A stretch of 64,000 bases of DNA from Escherichia coli (GTDB lineage Bacteria > Pseudomonadota > Gammaproteobacteria > Enterobacterales > Enterobacteriaceae). Every line of letters starts with the position of its first letter. Position 1 is the first letter of the stretch. Where the stretch lies: assembly GCF_965641715.1 (NCBI RefSeq), contig NZ_OZ282453.1, one strand, 5' to 3'. Positions 21,701 to 54,121 of this stretch are shown here, piece by piece. The translations under genes were made by a program, and so were the position numbers. The notes under the pieces were generated by a model. It was not told the DNA's origin, ran no database searches, and saw only the letters and a program-made list of their open reading frames with translations.

Positions 21701-23378
21701 CGTCTACGCAGGTACGCTGGCGGATGCATCGGTCAGTGGCGCGACAGGAAGCCTGTCGTTAATGACGCCACGGGATAATGTTACGCCAGTTAAACTCGAA
21801 GGGGCGATCCGGATTACCGATAGCGCGACATTAACTATCGGCAATGGCGTTGATACGACGCTTGCCGACCTGACGGCTGCCAGCCGGGGCAGTGTCTGGC
21901 TTAACAGCAATAATTCCTGTGCAGGCACCAGCAACTGCGAGTATAGAGTAAACAGTTTGCTACTTAACGACGGTGATGTTTATTTATCAGCACAAACAGC
22001 AGCGCCAGCCACAACTAACGGTATATACAATACGCTGACAACCAATGAACTTTCCGGTAGCGGTAATTTCTACCTGCATACCAACGTTGCAGGCTCCCGG
22101 GGCGATCAACTGGTCGTCAACAACAACGCCACTGGTAATTTTAAAATCTTTGTTCAGGATACCGGCGTCAGCCCACAGTCTGACGACGCGATGACGCTGG
22201 TGAAAACAGGGGGAGGGGATGCTTCGTTTACGCTGGGCAATACCGGCGGTTTCGTTGATCTTGGGACCTATGAGTATGTCCTGAAAAGTGACGGCAACAG
22301 CAACTGGAACCTGACCAATGATGTCAAACCCAACCCGGACCCCAACCCAAATCCCAACCCAAATCCCAACCCAAATCCGAAGCCAGATCCAAAACCAGAC
22401 CCAAAACCGGATCCGAAACCAGACCCGACTCCCGAGCCAACGCCGACACCCGTTCCGGAGAAACGCATCACGCCTTCTACCGCAGCCGTACTCAATATGG
22501 CAGCAACATTACCGTTGGTATTTGATGCTGAGCTAAACAGTATTCGCGAGCGGTTGAACATAATGAAAGCGAGTCCACGCAACAATAATGTCTGGGGGGC
22601 GACGTATAACACCCGTAATAATGTCACCACCGATGCGGGGGCCGGGTTTGAGCAGACGCTGACCGGAATGACAGTGGGGATCGACAGCCGTAATGATATT
22701 CCTGAGGGGATTGCGACGCTGGGCGCTTTTATGGGTTATTCCCATTCACATATCGGTTTTGATCGCGGAGGATATGGCAGTGTGGGCAGTTATTCTCTGG
22801 GCGGCTATGCCAGTTGGGAACATGAAAGTGGTTTCTATCTGGACGGTGTCGTGAAGCTGAACCGTTTTGAAAGTAACGTAGCCGGTAAAATGAGCAGCGG
22901 TGGAGCCGCCAATGGCAGTTACCACAGCAACGGGCTGGGCGGTCACATTGAAACCGGGATGCGATTTACCGATGGTAACTGGAACCTGACGCCGTATGCA
23001 TCGTTAACGGGGTTCACCGCTGATAACCCCGAATATCATTTATCCAATGGCATGAAATCGAAATCAGTCGATACCCGCAGTATATATCGTGAACTGGGCG
23101 CAACGCTGAGTTACAACATGCGTCTGGGAAACGGTATGGAAATTGAGCCGTGGCTGAAGGCGGCTGTGCGCAAAGAATTTGTCGATGATAACCGGGTGAA
23201 GGTGAATAATGACGGTAATTTCGTCAATGATTTGTCGGGCAGACGTGGAATATACCAGGCAGGTATTAAAGCCTCATTCAGCAGTACGTTAAGCGGGCAT
23301 CTCGGGGTGGGGTATAGCAACGGTGCCGGTGTGGAATCCCCGTGGAACGCGGTGGCTGGTGTGAACTGGTCGTTCTGA
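18771..23378 (+). CDS. ypjA: YpjA-like AIDA-I-type autotransporter adhesin (about 1535 aa): signal peptide, repeat-rich passenger, Pro-rich linker, C-terminal beta-barrel
   Basis: ORF 18651-23378; probable start MKFMNRTSPYYCRRSVLSLLISALIYAPPGMA (signal peptide) with RBS; passenger built of degenerate ~19-residue repeats; PNPDPNPNPNPNPNPKPDPKPDPKPDPKPDPTPEPTPTP linker; terminal ...GVGYSNGAGVESPWNAVAGVNWSF. Confidence 0.88.
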   Translation: MKFMNRTSPYYCRRSVLSLLISALIYAPPGMAAFTPDVIGVVNDETVDGSQRVDERGTTNSTHIINHGQQNVYGGVSNGSLIESGGYQDVGRHNNYVGQSNNTTINGGRQSIHDGGISTGTTIESGNQDVYKGGISNDTTIKGGNSHISGGTANGTIIDGGSQRVTTQGHVDSTTINKSGSQDITQGSLATNTTINGGRQYVEQSTVETTTIKNGGEQRVYESRALDTTIEGGTQSLNSKSTAKNTQIYSGGTQIVDNTSTSDVIEVYSGGVLDVSGGTATNVTQHDGAILKTNTNGTTVNGTNSEGAFSIHNHVADNVLLENGGHLDINAYGSANKTIIKDKGTMSVLTNAKADATRIDNGGVMDVAGNATNTIINGGTQNINNYGIATGTNINSGTQNIKSGGKADTTIISSGSRQVVEKDGTAIGSNISAGGSLIVYTGGIAHGVNQETGSALVANTGAGTDIEGYNKLSHFTITGGEANYVVLENTGELTVVAKTSAKNTTIDAGGKLIAQKEAKTDSTRLNNGGVLEVQDGGEAKHVEQQSGGALIASTTSGTLIEGTNSYGDAFYIRNSEAKNVVLENAGSLTVVTGSRAVDTIINANGKMDVYGKDVGTVLNSAGTQTIYASATSDKANIKGGKQTVYGLATEANIESGEQIVDGGSTEKTHINGGTQTVQNYGKAINTDIVSGLQQIMANGTAEGSIINGGSQVVNEGGLAENSVLNDGGTLDVREKGSATGIQQSSQGALVATTRATRVTGTRADGVAFSIEQGAANNILLANGGVLTVESDTSSDKTQVNTGGREIVKTKATATGTTLTGGEQIVEGVANETTINDGGIQTVSANGEAIKTTINEGGTLTVNDNGKATDIVQNSGAALQTSTANGIEISGTHQYGTFSISGNLATNMLLENGGNLLVLAGTEARDSTVGKGGAMQNQGQDSATKVNSGGQYTLGRSKDEFQALARAEDLQVAGGTAIVYAGTLADASVSGATGSLSLMTPRDNVTPVKLEGAIRITDSATLTIGNGVDTTLADLTAASRGSVWLNSNNSCAGTSNCEYRVNSLLLNDGDVYLSAQTAAPATTNGIYNTLTTNELSGSGNFYLHTNVAGSRGDQLVVNNNATGNFKIFVQDTGVSPQSDDAMTLVKTGGGDASFTLGNTGGFVDLGTYEYVLKSDGNSNWNLTNDVKPNPDPNPNPNPNPNPNPKPDPKPDPKPDPKPDPTPEPTPTPVPEKRITPSTAAVLNMAATLPLVFDAELNSIRERLNIMKASPRNNNVWGATYNTRNNVTTDAGAGFEQTLTGMTVGIDSRNDIPEGIATLGAFMGYSHSHIGFDRGGYGSVGSYSLGGYASWEHESGFYLDGVVKLNRFESNVAGKMSSGGAANGSYHSNGLGGHIETGMRFTDGNWNLTPYASLTGFTADNPEYHLSNGMKSKSVDTRSIYRELGATLSYNMRLGNGMEIEPWLKAAVRKEFVDDNRVKVNNDGNFVNDLSGRRGIYQAGIKASFSSTLSGHLGVGYSNGAGVESPWNAVAGVNWSF

Positions 23379-23388
23379 CCATCAACGA

Positions 23389-23412
23389 AAAAGCCCACAT
23401 CTGTGGGCTTTC
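23389..23412. terminator. Hairpin after ypjA (possible terminator)
   Basis: Inverted repeat AAAGCCCACA-TCTG-TGGGCTTT directly after the ypjA stop. Confidence 0.5.
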
Positions 23413-23538
23413 ATGTCACCAGGAGCCGCGGCTCCTTTGCGTATCCTTTTATGTCTCCTCACCGTCTGGTCGGTGTCCTGCTGAGACTTCTAACTTCCTG
23501 TTTTTGTTGGTGTTGTTTTTACACCGTCCAATCATGAT

Positions 23539-23901
23539 TGGTGGAGCTGGCGGGAGTTGAACCCGCGTCCGAAATTCCTACATCCTCGGTACTACATGCT
23601 TAGTCAGTCTTTACATTCGCTTGCCAGCTGCGGACGGACACGCCACTAACAAACTAGCCTGATTAAGTTTTAACGCTTCAACCCCAGGCAGGGCTTCCAC
23701 GCGATCTCTTTTGGGTTTGACCTCTCTTGATCCCCGTCCTAAGAGCGGAGGCTAGGGAGAGAGGGCTCTAAGCAGGTTATTAAGCTGCTAAAGCGTAGTT
23801 TTCGTCGTTTGCGACTATTTTTTGCGGCTTTTTACGAGGCCAACCGCCCCTCGGCATGCACCTTGGGTTTCGCAAATCCCGTCGAATCCAGAATCAGCCC
23901 C
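23539..23901 (-). ncRNA. ssrA: tmRNA (SsrA), 363 nt
   Basis: Reverse complement matches the recalled E. coli tmRNA from 5' GGGGCUGAUUCUGGAUUCGACGGG... through the tag-encoding region to the 3' ...GGUUCAACUCCCGCCAGCUCCACCA. Confidence 0.97.
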
Positions 23902-24115: not shown

Positions 24116-24598
24116 TTAACGGTGGGCGTTTTTCATTATACGCGCTTTATCCACCTGCCATTCGCGTTCTTTGATATCTGAACGTTTATCGTGCTGTTTC
24201 TTACCTTTGGCGACGCCGATTTTCACTTTGCACCAGGCATTTTTCCAGTACAGGGAGAGCGCCACTACGGTATAGCCTTCTCGATTGACGCGACCGTACA
24301 ATGAGTCCAGTTCGCGCTGGTTGAGAAGTAACTTGCGGGTACGGGTAGGATCGCACACCACATGCGTGGAGGCCACGGCCATTGGCGTGATGTTAGCGCC
24401 AAACAGAAATGCCTCTCCGTCACGCAGAAGGACGTAGCTGTCGCTGATATTGGCTTTTCCTGCGCGCAGGGATTTAACTTCCCAGCCTTGCAGGGCAAGT
24501 CCCGCTTCGAACTCTTCTTCGATAAAGTATTCGTGACGGGCGCGCTTGTTAAGCGCGATGGTCGCTGAACCAGGTTTATGTGCTTTTTTCTTCGTCAT
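24116..24598 (-). CDS. smpB: SmpB SsrA-binding protein
   Basis: 160 aa [59 protein letters not shown]... Confidence 0.97.
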
Positions 24599-38161: not shown

Positions 38162-38232
38162 TTATGTGTTATCGTTACGTCATCCTCGCTGAGGATCAAC
38201 TATCGCAAACGAGCATAAACAGGATCGCCATC

Positions 38233-39303
38233 ATGCAAAAAGACGCGCTGAATAACGTACATATTACCGACGAACAGGTTTTAATGACTCCGGCACAACT
38301 GAAGGCCGCTTTTCCATTAAGCCTGCAACAAGAAGCCCAGATTGCTGACTCGCGTAAAACCATTTCAGATATTATCGCCGGGCGCGATCCTCGTCTGCTG
38401 GTAGTATGTGGTCCTTGTTCCATTCATGATCCGGAAACTGCTCTGGAATATGCTCGTCGATTTAAAGCCCTTGCCGCAGAGGTCAGCGATAGCCTCTATC
38501 TGGTAATGCGCGTCTATTTTGAAAAACCCCGTACCACTGTCGGCTGGAAAGGGTTAATTAACGATCCCCATATGGATGGCTCTTTTGATGTAGAAGCCGG
38601 GCTGCAGATCGCGCGTAAATTGCTGCTTGAGCTGGTGAATATGGGACTGCCACTGGCGACGGAAGCGTTAGATCCGAATAGCCCGCAATACCTGGGCGAT
38701 CTGTTTAGCTGGTCAGCCATTGGTGCTCGTACAACGGAATCGCAAACTCACCGTGAAATGGCCTCCGGGCTTTCCATGCCGGTTGGTTTTAAAAACGGCA
38801 CCGACGGCAGTCTGGCAACAGCAATTAACGCTATGCGCGCCGCCGCCCAGCCGCACCGTTTTGTTGGCATTAACCAGGCAGGGCAGGTTGCGTTGCTACA
38901 AACTCAGGGGAATCCGGACGGGCATGTCATCCTGCGCGGTGGTAAAGCGCCGAACTATAGCCCTGCGGATGTTGCGCAATGTGAAAAAGAGATGGAACAG
39001 GCGGGACTGCGCCCGTCTCTGATGGTAGATTGCAGCCACGGTAATTCCAATAAAGATTATCGCCGTCAGCCTGCGGTGGCAGAATCCGTGGTTGCTCAAA
39101 TCAAAGATGGCAATCGCTCAATTATTGGTCTGATGATCGAAAGTAATATCCACGAGGGCAATCAGTCTTCCGAGCAACCGCGCAGTGAAATGAAATACGG
39201 TGTATCCGTAACCGATGCCTGCATTAGCTGGGAAATGACCGATGCCTTGCTGCGTGAAATTCATCAGGATCTGAACGGGCAGCTGACGGCTCGCGTGGCT
39301 TAA
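38233..39303 (+). CDS. aroF: AroF tyrosine-sensitive DAHP synthase
   Basis: ORF 38164-39303; likely start [66 protein letters not shown]... Confidence 0.96.
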
Positions 39304-39313
39304 GAGGTTTATT

Positions 39314-40435
39314 ATGGTTGCTGAATTGACCGCATTACGCGATCAAATTGATGAAGTCGATAAAGCGCTGCTGAATTTATTAGCGAAGCGTCTGGAACTG
39401 GTTGCTGAAGTGGGAGAGGTGAAAAGCCGCTTTGGACTGCCTATTTATGTTCCGGAGCGAGAGGCATCTATGTTGGCCTCGCGTCGTGCAGAGGCGGAAG
39501 CTCTGGGTGTACCGCCAGATCTGATTGAGGATGTTTTGCGTCGGGTGATGCGTGAATCTTACTCCAGTGAAAACGACAAAGGATTTAAAACACTTTGTCC
39601 GTCACTGCGTCCGGTGGTTATCGTCGGCGGTGGCGGTCAGATGGGACGCCTGTTCGAGAAGATGCTGACACTATCGGGTTATCAGGTGCGGATTCTGGAG
39701 CAACATGACTGGGATCGAGCGGCTGATATTGTTGCCGATGCCGGAATGGTGATTGTTAGTGTGCCAATCCACGTTACTGAGCAAGTTATTGGCAAATTAC
39801 CGCCTTTACCGAAAGATTGTATTCTGGTTGATCTGGCATCAGTGAAAAATGGACCATTACAGGCCATGCTGGCGGCGCACGATGGCCCGGTACTGGGGTT
39901 ACACCCAATGTTCGGTCCGGACAGCGGTAGCCTGGCAAAGCAAGTTGTGGTCTGGTGTGATGGACGTAAACCGGAAGCATACCAATGGTTTCTGGAGCAA
40001 ATTCAGGTCTGGGGCGCTCGGTTGCATCGTATTAGCGCCGTCGAGCACGATCAGAATATGGCGTTTATTCAGGCACTGCGCCACTTTGCTACTTTTGCTT
40101 ACGGGCTGCACCTGGCAGAAGAAAATGTTCAGCTTGAGCAACTTCTGTCGCTCTCTTCGCCGATTTACCGCCTTGAGCTGGCGATGGTCGGGCGACTGTT
40201 CGCTCAGGATCCGCAGCTTTATGCCGACATTATTATGTCGTCAGAGCGTAATCTGGCGTTAATCAAACGTTACTATAAGCGTTTCGGCGAGGCGATTGAG
40301 TTGCTGGAGCAGGGCGATAAGCAGGCGTTTATTGACAGTTTCCGCAAGGTGGAGCACTGGTTCGGCGATTACGCACAGCGTTTTCAGAGTGAAAGCCGCG
40401 TGTTATTGCGTCAGGCGAATGACAATCGCCAGTAA
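39314..40435 (+). CDS. tyrA: TyrA chorismate mutase / prephenate dehydrogenase
   Basis: 373 aa [57 protein letters not shown]... Confidence 0.97.
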
Positions 40436-40442
40436 TAATCCA

Positions 40443-40475
40443 GTGCCGGATGATTCACATCATCCGGCACCTTTT
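40443..40475. terminator. Bidirectional terminator between convergent tyrA and pheA
   Basis: GTGCCGGATGAT-TCACATC-ATCATCCGGCAC perfect hairpin followed by CTTTT. Confidence 0.85.
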
Positions 40476-40477
40476 CA

Positions 40478-41638
40478 TCAGGTTGGATCAACAGGCACTA
40501 CGTTCTCACTTGGGTAACAGCCCAATACCTTCATTGAACGGGTGATTTCCCCTAACTCTTTCAATGCTTTTTGCATTTCCGCTGATTCAAGATTGGCCTG
40601 AATATCCAGATAAAACATCTCTTCCCATGGATTACCGTGAATCGGGCGTGATTCCAGACGGGTCATAATCAGATTGTGGTTGCGCAGTACCAGCAACGCT
40701 TCAACCAGCGCACCGGCTTGTTGCCCGGTCGCCATTAACAACGTCGTTTTCGCCGGAACCTGATCAGACACGTTAATGGCTTTACGCGCCAACACCACAA
40801 ATCGGGTGAAGTTTTGTCGCTGATTCGCTTCAATCCGCTCCAGTACCTGCAAACCGTACAAAGTGCCGCCAGCTTCGCTTCCCAACGCAGCAACATGCGG
40901 TGATTTTGCCTGTGCAACCTTTTCCATTGCCGCAGACGTACTTTCGGTATATTCAATCTTCCAGTGCGGATAACGATTAAGGAATTTGCTGCATTGCTGG
41001 AATGGCTGCGGATGGCTGTAGACCGTATTGATGGTGGATAAATCAGTAGTGCCGGAGACCAACAAACAATGGTCGATAGTTAACGTCATCTCGCCAACAA
41101 TCGACAAGCTGGTATGTTGCAGCAGATCGTAAACGTCATTTATGGCACCGGAGCTGGTATTTTCAATCGGTACGACGGCATAGTCGGCCTGGCCGGTTTC
41201 CACCTGATTAAAAATATCGGCAAATTTGGCGCAGCCACTTTCAATGAATTGCTCAAAGTGACGGGCAGCATACTGGCGCGCCGCAAGATGGGAATAAGAA
41301 CCTTTGGGGCCGAGAAAAGCGATGCGTGCTGAGTGCGGATTAATTTTATTGAGATGTTGTTGGAGCAAAGCCTGCTGAGTTAATACGGAATCTTCAATGA
41401 TGAGCTGGAACAGGCGAGTAATGTAATGGGCGTCCAGATGGTGCGCTTTACCGAGCGTAATTAATCTTTCCAGTAAATCGCGTTCACGATCAATATCACG
41501 TACCGGGCGATGCGAGAGCAGTTTGGCTTTTCCCACCTCGACGGCCAGTTCGCGCCGCTCTGCGAGTAATGCTAATAATTTTTCATCCAGCGCGCTGATT
41601 TTCTCTCGCAGCGCCAGTAACGGGTTTTCCGATGTCAT
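40478..41638 (-). CDS. pheA: PheA chorismate mutase / prephenate dehydratase
   Basis: 386 aa [63 protein letters not shown]... Confidence 0.97.
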
Positions 41639-41951: not shown

Positions 41952-42974
41952 TTATGTGGATGAAATGTGGATGCCTCCTTTTAACGGATTAAGTGAAATT
42001 GCATCCTGGAGGAAATCAGGAGCGAGGTGCGCATAGGTCATAGTTTGCTGGATCGTGGCGTGCCCCATAATTCGCTGGAGCGTAAGTATATTTCCTCCAT
42101 TAATCATAAAGTGAGCTGCAAAGGTATGGCGTAGAACATGTACTGCCTGCCCTTTTGGTAGATCAGGTTTAACACTGCGAAGCACCTTGCGATATTCCTC
42201 ATAATTGACGTCAAACAAAAGGCCGGATTTCTTTGTTTTGATCTCGCTAACAACTTCATCAGAGACAGGAATAATTCGAACTTTTCCGTTTTTAGTTTTG
42301 TTAAACGTCACGCGGTTATTGATGATGTGTTCCGCGCGCAGATTTTTCGCTTCTCCCCATCTCGCACCAGTACTGAGACAAAGTAGCGTAATCCGCCGGG
42401 CATCACCGCTTACTGCATCCAGTAATTTGGCAATTTCTTCCGTGGTGAGATACGTCATTTCGGGTGATTTTCGTTTCAAAGAGGGGAGGGCGCGGAGCGG
42501 ATTTTCTCCGTGAAATTCCCCGGCATTTGCCAGGAGTGTAAACATTCCTCCGAGATCCGACTCATCACGCCGAACAGTAGACTCTTTTACTCCCAAAGAT
42601 AAACGGGAGCTTCGATAAGCGGCCATGAAACGAGCATTAATCTGGCTAACCCTTGGATCATTCATTTCTTTGATGATTTTTTTCAACCTGGTTAGAACGC
42701 CGTTAGCATATGGCTTATTGCGTCCACCCAATTCCCACCATAACGGAAGCAGATCTGAGAGATGACGTTGCTCTGTTGGCTTTTCAAGCCATTCCTTATC
42801 GTGCATGTGGCTGAGAACATAACGCTCAAAGGCCACTGCATCTGCCTTTTTCTTAAAAATCCGCTGAATCCGACGTCCACTTCGGCCACGCGGTCTAACA
42901 TCCACTTTATACCGTCCACCATCGAGTGCTTTAATTGCCATTGGCAAGCCCTCCGGTGAAACGAGGAAAGACAT
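41952..42974 (-). CDS. int: P2-type tyrosine integrase
   Basis: 340 aa ORF; ...RLKAEHIINNRVTFNKTKNGKVRIIPVSDEV...HVLRHTFAAHFMINGGNILTLQRIMGHATIQQTMTYAHLAPDFLQDAISLNPL closely resembles P2 Int as recalled (catalytic R...HxxR...Y). Confidence 0.93.
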   Translation of the reverse strand: MSFLVSPEGLPMAIKALDGGRYKVDVRPRGRSGRRIQRIFKKKADAVAFERYVLSHMHDKEWLEKPTEQRHLSDLLPLWWELGGRNKPYANGVLTRLKKIIKEMNDPRVSQINARFMAAYRSSRLSLGVKESTVRRDESDLGGMFTLLANAGEFHGENPLRALPSLKRKSPEMTYLTTEEIAKLLDAVSGDARRITLLCLSTGARWGEAKNLRAEHIINNRVTFNKTKNGKVRIIPVSDEVVSEIKTKKSGLLFDVNYEEYRKVLRSVKPDLPKGQAVHVLRHTFAAHFMINGGNILTLQRIMGHATIQQTMTYAHLAPDFLQDAISLNPLKGGIHISST

Positions 42975-47046: not shown

Positions 47047-49869
47047 ATGACGGCAGAGTACATCAGGGACTGGCAACAACCGCGCCACGCAGTGGGACGT
47101 GAAGGAACGGGGATCCCCGTTCCTGAATCCGCGCTTTCCTCCTGGCTGGATGCCTACCGGGCAGAGAACGAGCGCCGCCAGGAAATGGCTGATGCGGCGT
47201 TCTCCGCCACGCCGCTGGGCAACCTGATTAATAAAAGCCTGGATGCACAGGAAAAACAGGACAAAACCATCACACTGGCAGGAGACGCCAGAAAACAGGT
47301 ACGCGGTGCGGTGGATGAAGCCATGGCCTCGCTGCGCCTGCTGCCGTCCTATCTGCGCGATCCGCTTATTCGCCACCTCTCCTTCCTGCGCAAAAAACAG
47401 GAAGCCGATCGCCGGAAAGGCAAAAAGAGCTGGCAGGCTGAACGCTACGCGCGCGGAACCCTGCGCAAAATATTCGAACGTCTGGACCGCACCGACCACC
47501 GCTGGCTGACACCGGGTTATCGCTCCCTTGCCGGACGCGAACGCCTGGATGATTTGCTTTACCTGCCGCAGCTCAACAAGCACCAGATACAGACGCTGGC
47601 CACCATGACGGCGGCGATGTTCAGCAGCACCTTCGAAAAACTCTGCGATGGCTTTGGCGCGACTGATGGCGAGCTGACCATGGATGTAACGCTGAAGGCG
47701 TATCAGATGCTGGCCCGCATGGCGTTACACCTGCACGCCATGCCTCCGCATTATGATGCACTGACAACAGACAAAGACCGGAGGAACGAACCGGACACGG
47801 AGCTGCTGCCGGGCGCAATCCTTCGCCTGACCTGTGCGGAATGGTGGAAACGCAAACTGTGGCTGTTACGTTGCGAGTGGCGGGAAGAACAACTCCGCGC
47901 CGCCTGTCTGGTTTCCAGAAAAACATCGCCCTATCTGAGCCAGGACGCGTTAAGCGAGTTTCGCGCACAGCGCGAGAAAACACGCGATTTCCTGAAAAGT
48001 TTCATGCTGGAAAACGAAGACGGGTTCACGATTGATCTCGAGACGGTGTATTACGCGGGAGTAAGTAACCCGGTTCATCGTAAGGCAGAAATGATGGCCA
48101 CCATGAAGGGGCTGGAACTTCTGGCCGAAGCCCGTGGCGACAAAGCGGTGTTTCTGACTGTCACCTGCCCGTCAAAATACCACGCCACAACAGAGAACGG
48201 TCATCCGAATCCCAAATGGAACGGGGCCACCATGCGCGACTCCAGCGATTACCTGGTTAACACGTTTTTTGCGGCGGTCCGCAAGAAACTGAACCGCGAC
48301 GGCCTGCGCTGGTATGGCATCCGCACGGTGGAGCCTCACCATGACGGCACCGTGCACTGGCATATGATGGTCTTTGCTCATCCGGAAGAAATCGACACCA
48401 TTGTGTCCCACACCCGCGATATTGCCATTCAGGAAGATCGTCACGAGCTGGGTGATGATATTACCCCACGCTTTAAGGCGGAGTACGTCGACGGCTCAAA
48501 AGGCACACCGACCAGCTACATCGCCACCTACATCGGGAAAAACCTGGACAGCCGTGCCGTGGATGGCATCGACCCGAAAACGGGCAAGCCACGCGTTGAC
48601 CACGAAACCGGAAAATCAATGGCCGAGAGCGTGGAACGCGCCATCGGCTGGGCGCGCCTTCATCGGGTCCGCCAGTTCCAGTTCTTTGGCATCCCCTCCC
48701 GTCAGGTGTGGCGTGAACTGCGCCGCCTTGCCAGCCAGATGGCTCGCAACCCGGAAGGACCGCAACGGCTGAAGGATGACGCAATGGACGCGGTTCTTGC
48801 TGCCGCTGATGCCGGATGTTTTGCCACCTACATAGAGAAACAGGGCGGCGTACTTGTTCCACGCAAGGACTACCTGATTCGCACCGCCTACGACCTCGCA
48901 GATGAGCTGAACGATTACGGTGAACAGAGCGTACAGATTTACGGGATCTGGTCACCGCTCATCGGGGAGTCTTCCCGCGTATGCACGCATCCGGACAACT
49001 GGAAGCTGGTAAGACGCAAACCGGAAGCGGAAGACAGCGCCCGCGAAAATGGTTTTGACCTTCAGGGCGGCCCTGCCGCCCCTTGGACTCGTGGCAATAA
49101 CTGTCCCCGTGTACAGGAAACAGGCAACAGCGGGACAGAACAGTCGAAAGAACGGCCAGCACCGTGGCCGCAGCTTCCTGACGGCGTTGACGTGAACGAA
49201 TGGATGCGCTCACTGAAACGGCACGAACGCCGGGCGCTGATGCGTTCGCTTCGTGACAAACAGGCAAAAAACAGCAGTGATGAAATGCAGAGCTGGACAC
49301 AGAGCCGCAAACAGCCACGGCCTTTGCCTGATAACCACGAATTACTCGCTAAAGAATGGCGGGAGTCTGCTGAATCTCTCGGCCTGCATATCGGTGAACA
49401 ACAGATGCAGCACCTGTTACGGGGCGGCAGTCTGTACGTTGACGGCAGCATCATTGCACCGCAGGGATTTGAAATTGTACGCAAACCGGATACCCGCCCG
49501 GACAGCCGAATCACGCAGCTCTGGCAGCGCCTGAGCCGTAATCATGGCGTAAGCAGCACGGAGATCCGCCATAACCCGGTCGCCAGCTATCTGGCACAGC
49601 TGGGGGCATCAGACCCTGAAGCCGCCGCACGCCTGGCATCCACACTTCAGCAGGACCAGAACACCATGAAAACACCCGTTACCGTGCTTTCTGACATGCT
49701 GCGCGCCATCCGCGACGCAGAGCACGCACAGAGAATCAGTGAAACCACTGAACGCGCCAGCCGCAAAGCAGACCTGCTGCGGGGTGGCCTGACCAGTGGA
49801 AACAAAAAACAGACAGAAACGGGATTCACAAATCCCATAAATGAGCAAAAAACGTGCCGCGATATATGA
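47047..49869 (+). CDS. P2 gpA-like rolling-circle replication initiator endonuclease (940 aa)
   Basis: HUH-type motif region ...GIRTVEPHHDGTVHWHMMVFAHPEE...; position after the early ORFs matches P2 gene A; unusually long C-terminal region. Confidence 0.85.
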   Translation: MTAEYIRDWQQPRHAVGREGTGIPVPESALSSWLDAYRAENERRQEMADAAFSATPLGNLINKSLDAQEKQDKTITLAGDARKQVRGAVDEAMASLRLLPSYLRDPLIRHLSFLRKKQEADRRKGKKSWQAERYARGTLRKIFERLDRTDHRWLTPGYRSLAGRERLDDLLYLPQLNKHQIQTLATMTAAMFSSTFEKLCDGFGATDGELTMDVTLKAYQMLARMALHLHAMPPHYDALTTDKDRRNEPDTELLPGAILRLTCAEWWKRKLWLLRCEWREEQLRAACLVSRKTSPYLSQDALSEFRAQREKTRDFLKSFMLENEDGFTIDLETVYYAGVSNPVHRKAEMMATMKGLELLAEARGDKAVFLTVTCPSKYHATTENGHPNPKWNGATMRDSSDYLVNTFFAAVRKKLNRDGLRWYGIRTVEPHHDGTVHWHMMVFAHPEEIDTIVSHTRDIAIQEDRHELGDDITPRFKAEYVDGSKGTPTSYIATYIGKNLDSRAVDGIDPKTGKPRVDHETGKSMAESVERAIGWARLHRVRQFQFFGIPSRQVWRELRRLASQMARNPEGPQRLKDDAMDAVLAAADAGCFATYIEKQGGVLVPRKDYLIRTAYDLADELNDYGEQSVQIYGIWSPLIGESSRVCTHPDNWKLVRRKPEAEDSARENGFDLQGGPAAPWTRGNNCPRVQETGNSGTEQSKERPAPWPQLPDGVDVNEWMRSLKRHERRALMRSLRDKQAKNSSDEMQSWTQSRKQPRPLPDNHELLAKEWRESAESLGLHIGEQQMQHLLRGGSLYVDGSIIAPQGFEIVRKPDTRPDSRITQLWQRLSRNHGVSSTEIRHNPVASYLAQLGASDPEAAARLASTLQQDQNTMKTPVTVLSDMLRAIRDAEHAQRISETTERASRKADLLRGGLTSGNKKQTETGFTNPINEQKTCRDI

Positions 49870-49945
49870 AGCGCGCACAAAACAGGCAAAAGCGGGATTT
49901 AAAAATCCTGTAAACGATTAATTAATCAACATAAGGAAAAGCGAC

Positions 49946-50905
49946 ATGAAAATTTGTATCGACGACGGCTCCACCAACATCAAGCTGGCATGGACTGAGA
50001 ACGGCGAACGCCGCAACGCCATCAGCCCGAACAGCTTCAAGTCGGAATGGTCTGCGCCGTTCGGTGGCTCGCAGCCCGCGAACTACATGCTTGATGGCGT
50101 GCGCTATGGTTTTGATCCGGTCAGCGATCGCTTTGTCCAGACGACCGACACGCAATACCAGTACAGCGATGTGAATGTCATTGCCATTCATCACGCGCTG
50201 GTCAAATCAGGCATCACGCCACAGGAGGTGGATGTGGTTGTCACCCTGCCATTGAGCGAGTATTTCGACACAAACGCACAGCCGGACATGGCCAACATCA
50301 GCCGCAAAAAAGCGAACGTTATGCGCCCGGTGGAGTACCAGAACGGCGAAACATTCACTATCCGTAACGTACGGGTTATGCCTGAATCCATTCCGGCTGG
50401 CTTTAAAGCACTGGCTGACATGAGTCCGCTTGAATCCCTGCTGATTGTGGATTTGGGCGGAACCACACTGGATGTGGCAAAGGTTCAGGGGCAACTGGCA
50501 GGTATCAGCCAGGTGTTTTGCGATCCACACGTAGGCGTTTCCCTGATGGCCGATGCCGTACTGTCGGTGATGGCCACTAACGGTATGCGTATCAGTCACC
50601 ACATCGCCAATACCATTATCGAACATCGCCATGATGAAGCCTGGTTGCGCCAGCACATCCACAATGACGCGCATTACGCCAGCCTGATGGCGGTTATTCG
50701 TGAAAAGGAAGAAACACTGAAACAACGCGTGATCCGCGCGCTGGCGGTTTTTTCGGGTTACGGGCGGGTGATGGTTGTCGGTGGCGGGGCGGAGATTGTG
50801 GCACCCGCTATCCGCGAAGCCTGCGGAGTTAATGCGACTTTCATCGCGGACGGGGTGCCACAGTTTGCTCTGGTTAATGGGCTGTACGCAATGGACAAGG
50901 AGTAA
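49946..50905 (+). CDS. ParM/StbA-like actin-fold ATPase (319 aa)
   Basis: N-terminus MKICIDDGSTNIKLAWTE...ISPNSFKSEW...YQYSDVNVIAIHHALVKSGI...LIVDLGGTTLDVA... matches the recalled plasmid R1 ParM phosphate-1/connect/phosphate-2 motifs; strong RBS. Confidence 0.8.
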   Translation: MKICIDDGSTNIKLAWTENGERRNAISPNSFKSEWSAPFGGSQPANYMLDGVRYGFDPVSDRFVQTTDTQYQYSDVNVIAIHHALVKSGITPQEVDVVVTLPLSEYFDTNAQPDMANISRKKANVMRPVEYQNGETFTIRNVRVMPESIPAGFKALADMSPLESLLIVDLGGTTLDVAKVQGQLAGISQVFCDPHVGVSLMADAVLSVMATNGMRISHHIANTIIEHRHDEAWLRQHIHNDAHYASLMAVIREKEETLKQRVIRALAVFSGYGRVMVVGGGAEIVAPAIREACGVNATFIADGVPQFALVNGLYAMDKE

Positions 50906-50909
50906 ACCA

Positions 50910-51221
50910 ATGACGACTCCAACCAGACGGATAAGTTTCTATCTGAAGCCCGCCGCCGTCAAGAACGAAGGTGAAGCATGCGCCTGGCTGGACAGCCTTA
51001 CACCAGAAGCGCGCAAAAGCGGCCAACGCGTGGCTTTTCTGGCCGGGCTGGCACTTCTGAAAATGAATCCGGCAGAGGCTTACCGACTGGCTGCATGGGC
51101 TGATGATGAAGCGTTATCAGTGACACAAACCAGGACAGAACGCCCCGCGTCACAGCCAGTATCAACCGCACAGATAACCAGTCAGATGGCCGGAAATATC
51201 CGGGCGTTATTTCCCGAATAA
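50910..51221 (+). CDS. ParR-like small DNA-binding protein (103 aa), partner of the ParM-like ATPase
   Basis: ORF 50775-51221 with probable start MTTPTRRISFYLKPAAV...; RRISFYLKP...RVAFLAGLALLKMNP...NIRALFPE parallels recalled R1 ParR (RRTIAFKLNP...RAALTAGLALYRQDP...ILRSLFPKE); 4-nt gap after parM-like gene. Confidence 0.7.
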   Translation: MTTPTRRISFYLKPAAVKNEGEACAWLDSLTPEARKSGQRVAFLAGLALLKMNPAEAYRLAAWADDEALSVTQTRTERPASQPVSTAQITSQMAGNIRALFPE

Positions 51222-51284
51222 CACAACATCAGGGCGCATCCGCCCTGATGACTTTAACCCGGGAACATAAACAAGGGGGACACA

Positions 51285-51620
51285 ATGCAACGCATTGACA
51301 GAGAAAAAGCGCAGCGACTGATTGAGCGGATGGAAGCGCTGGCGAAAGAAGAAAATGTCAACATCCAAAAAATAGCTGAATGTGGCCAGATAGTTCTTCG
51401 TCGTGAAAAAGACCTCAAACAACTGATGTCTGGCGAAACCAGCAAAACATGGACTTCAGGTGAGGAGACGATTTATTGCAGCTTCTGCAATAAATCCCAG
51501 TACGAAGTCACAAAGGTGATTGCCGGACCGTCTGTTTACATCTGCAATGAGTGCGTTGATTTGTGCAATGAAGTTATCAGGAGAGAAGTGACAGACCATG
51601 AAGAAAAAACGCATGAATGA
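51285..51620 (+). CDS. Small protein with C-terminal ClpX-type C4 zinc-binding domain (111 aa)
   Basis: [40 protein letters not shown] is near-identical in pattern to the ClpX N-terminal ZBD ([39 protein letters not shown] as recalled); N-terminal 60 aa predicted helical; own AAGGGGGA RBS. Confidence 0.8.
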
Positions 51621-51786
51621 CGAATTTGACGGCTTTTAATTTTATCGGGGCGCACTGTCGCCCTGCATGGAGAAAAACAATAAAAAAGATGAATAACTGC
51701 TCATGTCAGACGCGCTGCGGGCAAGTCTGGCACCCTGCCCTGTCTCCGCAAAGGCTGTTGTCTTAACACGACAGAGTATGCCAGCA

Positions 51787-52194
51787 TTAAATATAATCTT
51801 CTTCGTAGTCGCTGATTAATTCATTGCCATAATCAGACAGCAATTTCAAAGCAAAGGTAACTTCCTCAAGGGTAGCTATCCCCATTGCTGAAAACACCGT
51901 TAATTTAACCAGCAGCAGGGAGTTTGAAAGTTCGGAAGAGTTCATCATTAAAAATATTGATGCAGCCTGAAAAGCTGTGCGTTTATTCCCATCATGAAAG
52001 GCATGAGCCTTGGCTATACCAATCAAATACATAGCAGCCAGAGCATGAATATCATCAACCCCTTCATAGTAGTGTAGTGTCCTGACGCGATTTAAAGCAC
52101 CTTCAAGTAGCCCGTCATTGGCATTTCCGCTCTGGGGTAAAGTTTCAGCATGGATACGTTCTACTTGTTCTTTTGACAAAAACACTATGTCCAT
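51787..52194 (-). CDS. Doc-like (Fic/Doc family) toxin
   Basis: 135 aa ORF with Doc-type Fic motif HAFHDGNKRTA (HxFx[D/N]GNKR); start overlaps stop of upstream antitoxin-like gene. Confidence 0.8.
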   Translation of the reverse strand: MDIVFLSKEQVERIHAETLPQSGNANDGLLEGALNRVRTLHYYEGVDDIHALAAMYLIGIAKAHAFHDGNKRTAFQAASIFLMMNSSELSNSLLLVKLTVFSAMGIATLEEVTFALKLLSDYGNELISDYEEDYI

Positions 52195-52550
52195 CAGTTA
52201 TCCTCAAGCTTTTTAATGATATCCGCATGTTTTTCTCTTGTACGCTTCATTGCATCTTCAAAAGACAATCCTTTTTTTCTCTGTGCGACAAGAGCTGGAT
52301 GACGTTTTTCCAGATCTCTCACTGCATTTATTAAGAGTGGTTGCTTCATTTTGTTTATTTGATCCCGCAGTTTTTTGGTTTTGCCAAGGACAGCCCGTAT
52401 TTCAGGACTAAGATCAGAACCAGCAAGAACAACATCCTTCCCTCCCTGCGCCGTGATAACGACACTGCCACCGGAAGAAAGGTAATCCAGAATTTCACTC
52501 AGGTTCTCACGAAATTCATCATCAGTTACAGTTTTCATATTCATTTCCAT
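52194..52550 (-). CDS. Phd/YefM-like antitoxin with extended C-terminal region (118 aa; start ambiguous among three ATGs)
   Basis: N-terminal MKTVTDDEFRENLSEILDYLSSGGSVVITAQGGKDVVLAGSDL resembles the Phd/YefM fold; basic C-terminal 60 aa; overlaps doc-like gene (ATGA arrangement). Confidence 0.7.
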   Translation of the reverse strand: MEMNMKTVTDDEFRENLSEILDYLSSGGSVVITAQGGKDVVLAGSDLSPEIRAVLGKTKKLRDQINKMKQPLLINAVRDLEKRHPALVAQRKKGLSFEDAMKRTREKHADIIKKLEDN

Positions 52551-52617
52551 TATGCACGCCCATAACGTAAGTATAACGGCTTGTTGGGCAGTAATAACAC
52601 CGCCATATTTTCATTTT

Positions 52618-52652
52618 ATACACCGCACAATAGTGCACAAATTTGCACAATT
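52618..52652 (-). promoter_or_regulatory. Candidate promoter/operator of the phd/doc-like operon with three iterated GCACAA sites at 10-bp spacing
   Basis: Plus strand CGCACAATAGTGCACAAATTTGCACAAT; minus strand reads TTGTGCAAATTTGTGCACTATTGTGCG followed by TATAAAAT -10-like element, then the antitoxin start. Confidence 0.5.
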
Positions 52653-53074
52653 TTTTTGAACAACTTTTTACCCTTCCGGCCCGCGTGGCGACTGGATCCG
52701 TCAAGGATCCGTGCGTGCACAAAAAAACGCGTTTTTTCTGCGCGCAGGTGACGGGGGAACAGCCCGCGTTTCAGGGGGTAAATAGCATTCCCTGAACGAT
52801 GTCGCAGCGACACAACAGAATGGCTGTATTTCTCACACTGAGCGTGAAAAAGGCGTGAGGGCTTTTGATTTGATGGGGTGACAGATAAGGCCGTCAAAAT
52901 CGCACTGAGGCGGCAAGAACATGCAGTCAACGCGGTGGGATTGCGTAAGAGCCTGACCGTCGATGATGGCGATAAGCTGGAAGACGTCGTGAAATTATCT
53001 GATTGATACAGGAGCTGGAGAGTCGGGGCATAAATTTTTTATGCCCCGGCGAAGCAGCAGACAAGCGAAGCGCG

Positions 53075-54121
53075 TCAGGATGTGGGCTGGGTGTCCAGCA
53101 GTGCGTAAGGGTTAAAGCGGATCACCTCTTCGCCAAGCCAGTCATTGATATGCTTCATGGCCTCCATGACGGGCATCAGCTCGTTAATTGCGTAAACCCG
53201 CGCTGCCTTCTCCACATCACCAAACGCACTTTTTTCGCCCGGCATCGCCCCCATCAGTTGCGGCGGAACGCGGTGCGCAGCCAGCACATCATCACGGGAT
53301 GCCGCCTTAACATTCATGAACTCATCCTTTGCGGTGATCTGCTGGAACGGCAAAATTTGCACACCTTCTTTGCCCCCGTTGGGCGCGTGAATGAGCACGT
53401 TTTTAAATGCACCACCACCACGCGCACCCTGTAGCGTTTCCTTCAGGGAGTCCATGCTTTCGCGGTTTACCTGCGCTGCACCGATGTAGATGATGCACCC
53501 GGCGTGGGATCCATTGTCGTAGTACAGTTTTCTGAACATGTCCGCCGAATGAGACAGGCTGGCCGAGAGTAATGCGCCAAGATATTCCGGCATGCCGTAA
53601 ATTTCCTGGTTAATGTCCGGATTCATCAGGTGGCACACTTTGCCAGGGCGAAACTGAAACGCGTCCTTGCCATCCTGCACATACCACCATGATTCAAGAT
53701 CGCTTCCGCGTCGCATGTATTTCGCCAGTGCGTGCCGTAATTTAAGTGGTTCGCCGAGCATATTGCTCCGAAGCTCAAGGAATGCGTTACCGAACACAAA
53801 CCAGTCCAGCGCCAGCGCCGAGAAATCCTGCCGGGAAAGCAGCGGGTGCGGGATGTAGCAACCGAGCAATACATTGCGCTTAAAGTAAAGCGCAGACTGA
53901 TGCCAGGACGTTTGCCGGGCGGCTCTTGCCAGACCGTACCAGTCCACCGGGGTTTCATACCACCGCCCGTTATCAGCACAGTACATATTGTCCAGCAGGT
54001 CATGCCCGGTCAGGCGGTAAGGACCATCAAATGTGAATGCACTGAGCGACGATTCTTTCCTGAGCGCATCAGCGAGATCAATGCGTGAACTCATGCGCAC
54101 TTTTTTATTTTTTCTGCTCAT
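53075..54121 (-). CDS. Portal protein (P2 gpQ-like)
   Basis: 348 aa ORF in the conserved position and orientation of P2 Q; start overlaps the stop of the terminase gene. Confidence 0.9.
   Translation of the reverse strand: MSRKNKKVRMSSRIDLADALRKESSLSAFTFDGPYRLTGHDLLDNMYCADNGRWYETPVDWYGLARAARQTSWHQSALYFKRNVLLGCYIPHPLLSRQDFSALALDWFVFGNAFLELRSNMLGEPLKLRHALAKYMRRGSDLESWWYVQDGKDAFQFRPGKVCHLMNPDINQEIYGMPEYLGALLSASLSHSADMFRKLYYDNGSHAGCIIYIGAAQVNRESMDSLKETLQGARGGGAFKNVLIHAPNGGKEGVQILPFQQITAKDEFMNVKAASRDDVLAAHRVPPQLMGAMPGEKSAFGDVEKAARVYAINELMPVMEAMKHINDWLGEEVIRFNPYALLDTQPTS

Follow-up and report, generated by a model that had tools for sequence, protein, structure and literature searches.

Three layers between genes A and Q of an integrated P88-like prophage of Escherichia coli: an R1-type partition module, a ClpX-like zinc finger gene and a doc-phd pair

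Introduction

The interval between the replication gene A and the portal gene Q of P2-like prophages is a hotspot that contains old and tin in P2 as well as other validated defences (Rousset et al. 2022, PMC9122126). In the same survey, partition systems were described for about one quarter of the P2-like prophages, cos was placed next to Q, and Table S5A lists exactly the five-domain arrangement investigated here. In Corynebacterium glutamicum, the AlpC/AlpA system of prophage CGP3 is reported to help transport the viral DNA and replicate it efficiently once the prophage is induced (PMC4446434, PMC5539076).

Here we analysed a window of 64,000 nucleotides of an E. coli genome (contig NZ_OZ282453.1), in which the interval between A and Q (49870–53074) had been interpreted as a plasmid-like stability and candidate defence cassette of a combination not known to have been described before. 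The latter assumption is contradicted by Table S5A of the hotspot survey (PMC9122126), in which WP_000211256, WP_001561007 and WP_001561011 match the RefSeq proteins of this locus exactly. The five-domain arrangement is thus already known from a published table, and we focus on its composition, distribution and possible functions.

Results

The interval between A and Q is not a single unit

Positions 49870–53074 extend exactly from the stop of A to the stop of Q, and all five genes were found where they had been predicted. On the left, the interval is flanked by the replication endonuclease gene A (47047–49869, plus strand), whose 940-aa product matches phrog_91 ('nicking at origin of replication', 3.7e-275) and is named 'replication endonuclease' in RefSeq; on the right lies the portal gene Q (53075–54121, minus strand; RefSeq 'phage portal protein'). 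The five gene identities were upheld by Pfam, NCBIfam and PHROG profile searches and by structure-sequence matches, the convergent orientation of doc-phd and parM-parR-ZBD is as claimed, and the assignment of the interval to the P2 cargo hotspot agrees with Rousset et al. 2022 (PMC9122126). All five proteins are already named in RefSeq, and their exact sequences are present in public collections, that of ParM on 164 contigs and those of the other four on approximately 1000 or more contigs each.

Among 5426 complete E. coli genomes, the genes showed a nested distribution, with parMR in 1306 genomes, the ClpX zinc finger (ZBD) gene in 111, doc-phd in 19 and all five genes together in 17; this Q allele was present in 1083. 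parM and parR have a GC content of 0.55 and doc and phd one of approximately 0.41, with the ZBD gene in between at 0.44; the value of the prophage is 0.53. In strain UPEC132, parM, parR and the ZBD gene are deleted while doc-phd is retained. Given this persistence of doc-phd and the nested distribution, the five genes do not form one unit, contrary to the single cassette originally proposed. In the sampled relatives, six different cargos were found between the same flanks and the variation was confined to approximately 51277–52624, which is the true variable slot. The comparison across relatives therefore supports a variable slot, but not the assignment of parMR to its content; the variable cargo is only the doc-phd pair plus the small ClpX-like gene.

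parM-parR belongs to the backbone of the P88-like branch

The gene parM (49946–50905, plus strand, GC 0.551) encodes an R1-type actin-like segregation ATPase with the Pfam domains StbA_N (5.6e-82) and ParM C-terminal domain (5.4e-68); 149 of the 317 residues aligned with the R1 ParM structure 1mwk are identical (47%, E=7.5e-94). After a gap of 4 nt it is followed by parR (50910–51221, plus strand), whose product belongs to the R1-type StbB/ParR adaptors (Plasmid_stab_B, PF10784, 2e-24; phrog_2515, 'partition protein', 1e-58) and had no match in a search against solved structures. With 55%, the GC content of both genes resembles that of the backbone. They are intact in ten of ten sampled loci, with dN/dS values of 0.10 for parM and 0.25 for parR in comparison to 0.14 for A and 0.04 for Q, and each of the 14 phage records that have this A gene carries parM as well. 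Thus, among the P2-like phages, parM-parR is a backbone component of the P88-like branch (Xuanwuvirus) and not cargo of the slot as the original prediction had it. It represents a core block of a P2 sub-lineage that is conserved, but not functionally characterised; a literature search revealed nothing on P88 ParM or Xuanwuvirus.

In the 76-bp gap between A and parM, a motif scan identified neither a plus-strand terminator-like site nor a sigma-70-like promoter, which supports co-transcription of parMR with A; the sigma-70 scan revealed no promoter for parM or phd. Two 42-nt direct repeats (49803–49844 and 49876–49917) lie 73 bp apart, each with a (C)GGGATT-N4-AATCC palindrome. Within the window, this pattern occurs only here and, with one mismatch, at one site in ssrA, and the palindrome repeats are kept upstream of parM in 11 P88-like loci. 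The stretch 49803–49917 is a candidate binding site of ParR, either as parC or as operator. However, since the repeats are located partly inside gene A, they could instead have an origin-related role for protein A. The two candidate parC sites are far fewer than those of the iteron array of phage D6, and parC of R1 is likewise an iteron array with many more sites than two.

The ZBD gene at the left edge of the slot

Directly 3' of parR lies a terminator-like hairpin with a perfect 10-bp stem (51227–51250). The conserved left block ends approximately 25 bp past this hairpin at about 51276, where the variable slot begins, and matches in phages without the ZBD gene end at query position 1407. The accessory ZBD gene (51285–51620, plus strand, GC 0.44) encodes 111 aa with a C-terminal ClpX-type C4 zinc finger (zf-C4_ClpX, 3e-17, residues 64–99), in which 29 of 36 residues including all four cysteines are identical to E. 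coli ClpX. The protein belongs to phrog_6797 of unknown function; its N-terminal 55 aa or so match nothing, and an AAA+ module is lacking. Megablast with the ZBD gene found matches in 111 genomes and not in all 5426, and hence none to the host clpX at DNA level. The gene is absent from Shae_phiSM and others. An assignment to the partition module was rejected, because the ZBD gene is missing from most parMR loci and its homologue in a P1/D6-like plasmid is situated among early genes, apart from the partition genes.

A probably recent doc-phd insert

The low-GC insert of approximately 1 kb with doc-phd (51618–52624, GC 0.421) is cargo special to this prophage; relatives diverge from it at the ZBD stop codon and rejoin at 52625. 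The copies in the 19 genomes are at least 99.7% identical, on which grounds the insert was probably acquired only once. Phd/Doc is indeed variable cargo here, with a low GC content and present in only 19 of the 5426 genomes. The gene doc (51787–52194, minus strand) encodes a putative death-on-curing toxin with a Fic fold (TIGR01550, 53.6 bits versus a cut-off of 38.65; Fic PF02661, 5.6e-11) that matches P1 Doc (3k33) with 6e-13 and 34 of 97 identical residues (35%). Its motif HAFHDGNKR is intact and aligned with HIFNDANKR of P1. The putative phd-like antitoxin gene (52194–52538, minus strand) encodes 114 aa from the RefSeq start, while the longest open reading frame extends to 52550. RefSeq names the product Phd/YefM; the PhdYeFM Pfam match is weak and covers residues 5–42 only (5.5e-6), the C-terminal 70 aa or so have no Pfam match, the NCBIfam score of 16.6 lies under the cut-off of 20.8, and matches to Phd in the PDB have an E value of about 1. 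The stop codon of phd overlaps the start of doc (ATGA, 52192–52196) in an antitoxin-first bicistronic order. By eye, we noticed a candidate phd promoter, TTGTGC-N16-TAAAAT, across the junction of cargo and backbone.

The conserved block next to Q

The conserved Q-proximal block (52625–53074) contains GGATCCGT twice, a AAAAAACG/CGTTTTTT palindrome and a small open reading frame. Its left edge is formed by three GCACAA copies with an exact 10-bp spacing (52625–52650), an array that was matched by none of 100 shuffles. The repeat array proposed as an iterated operator is therefore real, but its assignment to Phd had to be rejected: the GCACAA iterons occur in nine loci with different cargos, seven of them without phd, and are a backbone element whatever the cargo. 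The small conserved open reading frame (52878–53006, plus strand) encodes a hypothetical protein of 42 aa, WP_000129993.1 in RM10740 and gp22 in P88. Between its end and that of Q, a hairpin with a perfect 11-bp stem (53024–53048), invariant in seven loci, is likely to act as a bidirectional terminator. A gyrA Rfam match on this hairpin, the sole match in a scan of 49500–53300, was sub-threshold and was rejected. Judged by synteny with P2, cos would lie on this side of the slot; the 19-mer of P2/186 cos was not found in the window with up to three mismatches.

Discussion

Three layers and their possible functions

We consider it likely that the A–Q interval consists of three layers differing in age, inside an integrated P88-like (Xuanwuvirus, P2-like) prophage. 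What was observed are the identities of the genes, their layering and the boundaries of the slot, together with chromosomal integration and purifying selection; the functional steps that follow are inferred. In the first layer, parM-parR would act as an R1-type (type II) partition module of the backbone directly 3' of gene A, transcribed with the early replication operon upon infection or induction. ParR would bind the two conserved palindromes in front of parM, and ParM filaments would position or separate circular extrachromosomal phage genomes during replication, before integration or packaging; the module would be idle while the prophage is chromosomal. In the second layer, the accessory gene, which copies the zinc-binding domain from the N terminus of ClpX minus the ATPase module, might provide a decoy that binds partners of the N-domain of host ClpX, an idea drawn from sequence identity. 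The third layer is presumed to be a recent low-GC doc-phd insert that filled the slot, with the ZBD gene on one side and the conserved Q-proximal block on the other. As known from the family, Doc would phosphorylate EF-Tu and halt translation, and Phd would neutralise Doc. Loss of the prophage, or the shut-off of host expression by an invading phage, would then lead to decay of the labile antitoxin and free Doc, resulting in prophage addiction and possibly in abortive infection.

Alternative explanations

Instead of serving prophage addiction, Phd/Doc may chiefly be an abortive-infection cargo that guards the lysogen against phages, but we regard this as rather doubtful. The pair is located in the hotspot of old, tin and other validated defences, and the Fic domain of Doc showed weak matches (7e-6 to 6e-4) to the PADLOC candidates PDC-S23 and PDC-M59B. 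However, no established defence system model of PADLOC-DB 2.0.0 matched at the locus, and a literature search yielded no report of phage defence mediated by Phd/Doc. Moreover, ten alternative cargo proteins from the slot had no PADLOC match, so that the slot of the P88-like lineage is not visibly defence-rich.

It is unlikely that P88-like phages are facultative phage-plasmids, in which ParMRC stabilises a plasmid-state prophage whenever integration has failed and Phd/Doc kills cells losing the episome. This idea could draw on one complete circular P88-like record of 34,461 bp, which was deposited as 'plasmid' from a strain outside the E. coli genome collection, and on the closest ParM among phages of other genera: among 50,697 records, the true phage-plasmid D6 is the sole other phage with a ParM of the R1-type family (47.5% identity). 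The circular record would fit a plasmid-state role, or may be an excised replicating copy; a phage of identical sequence is integrated in another strain. Against a stable extrachromosomal replicon for ParMRC, 1451 of the 1453 parMR places in the 5426 genomes are chromosomal, and the partition genes, originally held to be atypical of integrated P2-type genomes, are thus typical of the P88-like lineage. At the prophage studied here, the integrase is intact and adjoined by pheA, tyrA and aroF in the window. In addition, only 19 of the approximately 1300 such prophages carry doc-phd. A replicon with a P2-type gene A replicates lytically by rolling circle and is not a copy-controlled plasmid replicon. 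Experimentally, PhiSM lysogens had integrated at pdxB (PMC6456863), and P88 was induced from the chromosome (PMC5285337).

We give little credence to a functional coupling of the second and third layers, in which host ClpX would face competition from the ZBD decoy for adaptors, or for substrates that depend on the N-domain, and the decoy would thus tune the ClpXP turnover of Phd, creating a protease-gated switch for addiction or abortive infection. P1 Phd is a ClpXP substrate. In the 17 genomes concerned, doc-phd is inserted right at the ZBD stop codon; this co-occurrence goes back to one insertion, and UPEC132 has kept doc-phd although the ZBD gene is gone.

That the five genes function together as one mobile 'plasmid-like stability and defence cassette' in the P2 cargo slot is very improbable. 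While all five genes lie within the A–Q hotspot and occur together in 17 genomes, the nested distribution, the three GC classes, the association of parMR with the A allele in every one of 14 phage records and the UPEC132 deletion variant with doc-phd alone argue against it, and the identity of at least 99.7% among doc-phd copies reduces their co-occurrence with the ZBD gene to one event. Least credible of all is that parM and parR are decaying, functionless relics of an ancestral plasmid fusion: a chromosomal prophage needs no partition system for its inheritance, but the genes are intact in all ten sampled loci, have dN/dS values similar to that of the essential gene A, are retained in approximately 1300 genomes and encode nucleotide-binding motifs that align with R1 ParM.

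In about one quarter of the complete E. coli genomes, an R1-type actin partition machine is present inside a chromosome-integrating prophage and under purifying selection. Its role is directly testable with P88 or PhiSM. The same phages would allow investigation of the ZBD gene, a near-copy of the substrate-recognition domain of host ClpX that recurs as a small phage gene. A literature search returned nothing on phage-encoded inhibitors of ClpX domains.

Comparison with known systems

The same locus is covered in Table S5A of the gpA-gpQ survey (Rousset et al. 2022, PMC9122126). While the whole A–Q interval was treated as the hotspot there, the variable part comprises here only about 51277–52624, and parMR is backbone-like. 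Our ZBD protein shares 29 of 36 finger residues with the N-terminal zinc-binding domain of E. coli ClpX (1ovx, 2ds5), but is phage-borne, lacks the AAA+ module and has an unrelated N-terminal region of approximately 55 aa. Phd/Doc resembles the P1 system (3k33, 3dd7, 3kh2) in Doc (35% identity over 97 aa, motif HxFx(D/N)(A/G)NKR), in the antitoxin-first operon with ATGA overlap and in a putative Phd/YefM N-terminal domain. In contrast to P1, the C-terminal 70 aa or so of the 114-aa antitoxin match no Pfam family, the pair resides on an integrated prophage instead of a plasmid, and the iterons close to the pair do not belong to it.

With R1 ParMRC (1mwk, 5aey), the partition module shares a ParM that is 47% identical over its full length with aligning N-terminal and central nucleotide-binding motifs, a ParR of PF10784, and the order parM-parR with repeats upstream. 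It differs from R1 by its location in an integrating P2-like phage immediately 3' of the replication gene A, and by a candidate centromere of two 20-bp palindromes 73 bp apart instead of an iteron array. StbA/StbB of D6 also includes a ParR-like gene downstream, whose product is 35% identical to ParR over the N-terminal 49 aa, but D6 is a true plasmid prophage with several TCTCA-type repeats in a 266-bp upstream region. The functional model that we tentatively adopted for parMR is that of AlpC/AlpA of CGP3, likewise an actin-like protein and a DNA-binding adaptor of an integrated prophage, but from a different actin-like subfamily and host phylum.

Gene content of the A-Q interval

The interval 49870-53074 extends exactly from the stop codon of replication gene A (47047-49869) to that of portal gene Q (53075-54121, minus strand) and contains the five genes described in the original prediction. 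The parM gene (49946-50905) matches both Pfam ParM domains (5.6e-82 and 5.4e-68), and its product aligns over the full length with the R1 ParM structure 1mwk (E=7.5e-94, 47% identity). It is followed by parR (50910-51221; Plasmid_stab_B, 2e-24), together referred to as parMR, and by a gene (51285-51620) for a 111-aa protein (ZBD protein) whose residues 64-99 form a ClpX C4 zinc finger. This finger shares 29 of 36 residues (81%) with E. coli ClpX, and the protein is devoid of the ATPase module. The product of doc (51787-52194, minus strand) scores above the curated TIGR01550 cut-off and, aligned with P1 Doc, retains the HAFHDGNKR motif. The phd-like antitoxin gene (52194-52538) is located upstream of doc, its stop codon overlapping the doc start, and its match to Phd/YefM is weak and confined to the N-terminus. 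The Pfam, TIGR01550 and 1mwk matches bear out the gene identities, and the assignment to the P2 slot was right as well, the gpA-gpQ interval having been defined as a diversity hotspot by Rousset et al. 2022 (PMC9122126). The combination itself is not novel as had been supposed, because the same arrangement is listed in that survey (PMC9122126) with WP_000211256, WP_001561007 and WP_001561011, identical to the RefSeq accessions at the window locus; it is therefore already known and annotated. All five exact protein sequences are present in public collections, four of them on approximately 1000 or more contigs and ParM on 164, and our literature search retrieved no functional study of any of the five proteins.

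Chromosomal location of the prophage

The A-Q region is part of a P88-like prophage (genus Xuanwuvirus, Peduoviridae), with P88, PhiR44_2, Shae_phiSM and others as the closest records (94-97% identity). In the window this prophage is integrated, its integrase gene (41952-42974) adjoining pheA, tyrA and aroF (38164-41638). E. coli RM10740 carries an A-Q interval 100% identical to that of the window, but its prophage is located at pdxB and encodes an integrase that differs in length; one and the same cargo has thus been joined to different integration modules. The P88-like phage PhiSM, which carries parMR, lysogenises K-12 via integration at a 17-bp site in pdxB (PMC6456863), and mitomycin C induces P88 from the chromosome (PMC5285337). 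Elsewhere in the window, the tmRNA gene ssrA (23539-23901, minus strand) and smpB (24116-24598) adjoin an island (12856-23901) with a YpjCB-family gene (16495-17868), an ORF of 1575 aa (18651-23378) and one of 750 aa (12856-15108) without an NCBIfam match.

Partition genes had been considered atypical of an integrated P2-type genome, and a facultative plasmid lifestyle is one of the rival explanations. A complete 34,461-bp P88-like genome with integrase has been deposited as a circular plasmid (NZ_CP148288.1, pZ1323PEC0009-2); over 24 kb it shows 100% identity with a prophage integrated in strain Z1323HEC0067. The circle represents an excised copy or, alternatively, a lysogen in the plasmid state. 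When each segment was used as a separate query against 5426 complete E. coli genomes, parMR was found in 1306 genomes at 1453 places, 1451 of which are chromosomal, which contradicts the presumed atypicality.

Variable slot and layered composition

The left block common to relatives reaches up to about 51276, just past a perfect hairpin behind parR, and the right block starts at 52625. Between them, sampled relatives carry the ZBD gene together with various hypothetical genes, an ead/Ea22-like gene, a gene for a membrane protein on the opposite strand, a YafO-type toxin gene or an IS element, or the slot is almost empty. The doc-phd insert starts at the ZBD stop codon and ends at 52624. A pure defence role of doc-phd is another rival explanation; none of ten alternative slot products matched a PADLOC model. 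In O157:H7 strain 2149 (L011, 6438-7651), an IS1203 element follows parR and tail genes replace the Q-P head genes; this copy is a rearranged or degraded prophage with parM and parR still intact. In many genomes including O157:H7, the parMR match ends approximately 55 nt into parR (window 50964 onward), and the remainder is a divergent allele (L011 6041-6355; 315 nt vs 312), a pattern suggesting that the lineage has two or more types of ParR specificity.

The content of the A-Q interval consists of three layers. In the same 5426 genomes, the ClpX-finger gene was detected in 111 as an accessory gene, doc-phd in 19 (every copy at least 99.7% identical) and all five genes together in 17 (interval coverage of 80% or more), while the Q allele, searched for comparison, was present in 1083. 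Within the phage collection, this A allele and parM mark one and the same set of 14 records. The GC content is 0.55 for parM and parR, 0.53 for the prophage, 0.44 for the ZBD gene and approximately 0.41 for doc and phd. A rival and unlikely view takes parM and parR as relics; both are intact in every sampled locus (6-10 loci), and their dN/dS values of 0.10 and 0.25 are comparable to those of A (0.14) and Q (0.04). In UPEC132 (L007, 3943-4879), a deletion has removed parR and the ZBD gene and reduced parM to a stub of 54 aa, leaving this stub, doc and phd between A and Q; doc-phd is therefore independent of the remaining genes of the set. A ZBD homologue (L006 4776-5138) lies within a cluster of early genes on a 90-kb P1/D6-like plasmid, away from partition genes; the ZBD gene is a recurrent small phage gene. 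The concept of a single five-gene cassette, although all five genes do co-occur here, is contradicted by the nested counts (1306, 111 and 19 genomes), the GC layers and the UPEC132 variant.

Proposed functions

For these three layers, we infer the following mechanism as the most likely one. The parMR genes would be co-expressed with gene A from the early operon, which we favour because the 76-bp gap between A and parM contained neither a terminator-like site nor a recognisable promoter in our scan. They would act on extrachromosomal circles during replication, as has been shown for AlpAC of prophage CGP3 (PMC4446434). The ZBD protein is plausibly a decoy for partners of the host ClpX N-domain. 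In P1, Doc arrests translation through EF-Tu and is neutralised by Phd; by analogy, doc-phd most likely works like this family, which would give prophage addiction and perhaps abortive infection as well. The lineage in which parMR would act on replicating circles is an integrating one and is present in roughly one in four E. coli genomes.

Repeats flanking the cargo

Three GCACAA iterons with an exact spacing of 10 bp (52625-52650; 0 of 100 shuffles gave such a run) open the conserved Q-proximal block. They had been predicted to be an iterated operator of Phd. The iterons are real, but they represent a backbone element, since nine loci with differing cargos, seven of them without phd, have them at the identical position, and a Phd-specific operator was rejected on these grounds. 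Further positions are L001 6125-6150, L002 6880-6905 and L003 6203-6228, among others. On their 3' side, GGATCCGT is present twice (52694 and 52705), followed by a AAAAAACG/CGTTTTTT palindrome (52722-52737). The iterons may serve as an accessory site for packaging or cos, or else as a second site for ParR. Inspection of the sequence also shows a -10-like TAAAAT within the cargo, at a distance of 16 nt from the middle hexamer, so that a hybrid promoter might drive phd; no such promoter was detected in the promoter scan.

A GGGATT-N4-AATCC palindrome lies within both copies of a 42-nt direct repeat (49803-49844 and 49876-49917); it has no further occurrence in the prophage, and its presence in front of parM is conserved across eleven loci. 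The region 49803-49917 is a candidate centromere, and a role for protein A is possible given that the first copy is located inside gene A. The repeats occupy a position matching that of parC in type II systems, although with only two sites here. In phage D6, by contrast, the upstream region is longer and bears several short repeats.
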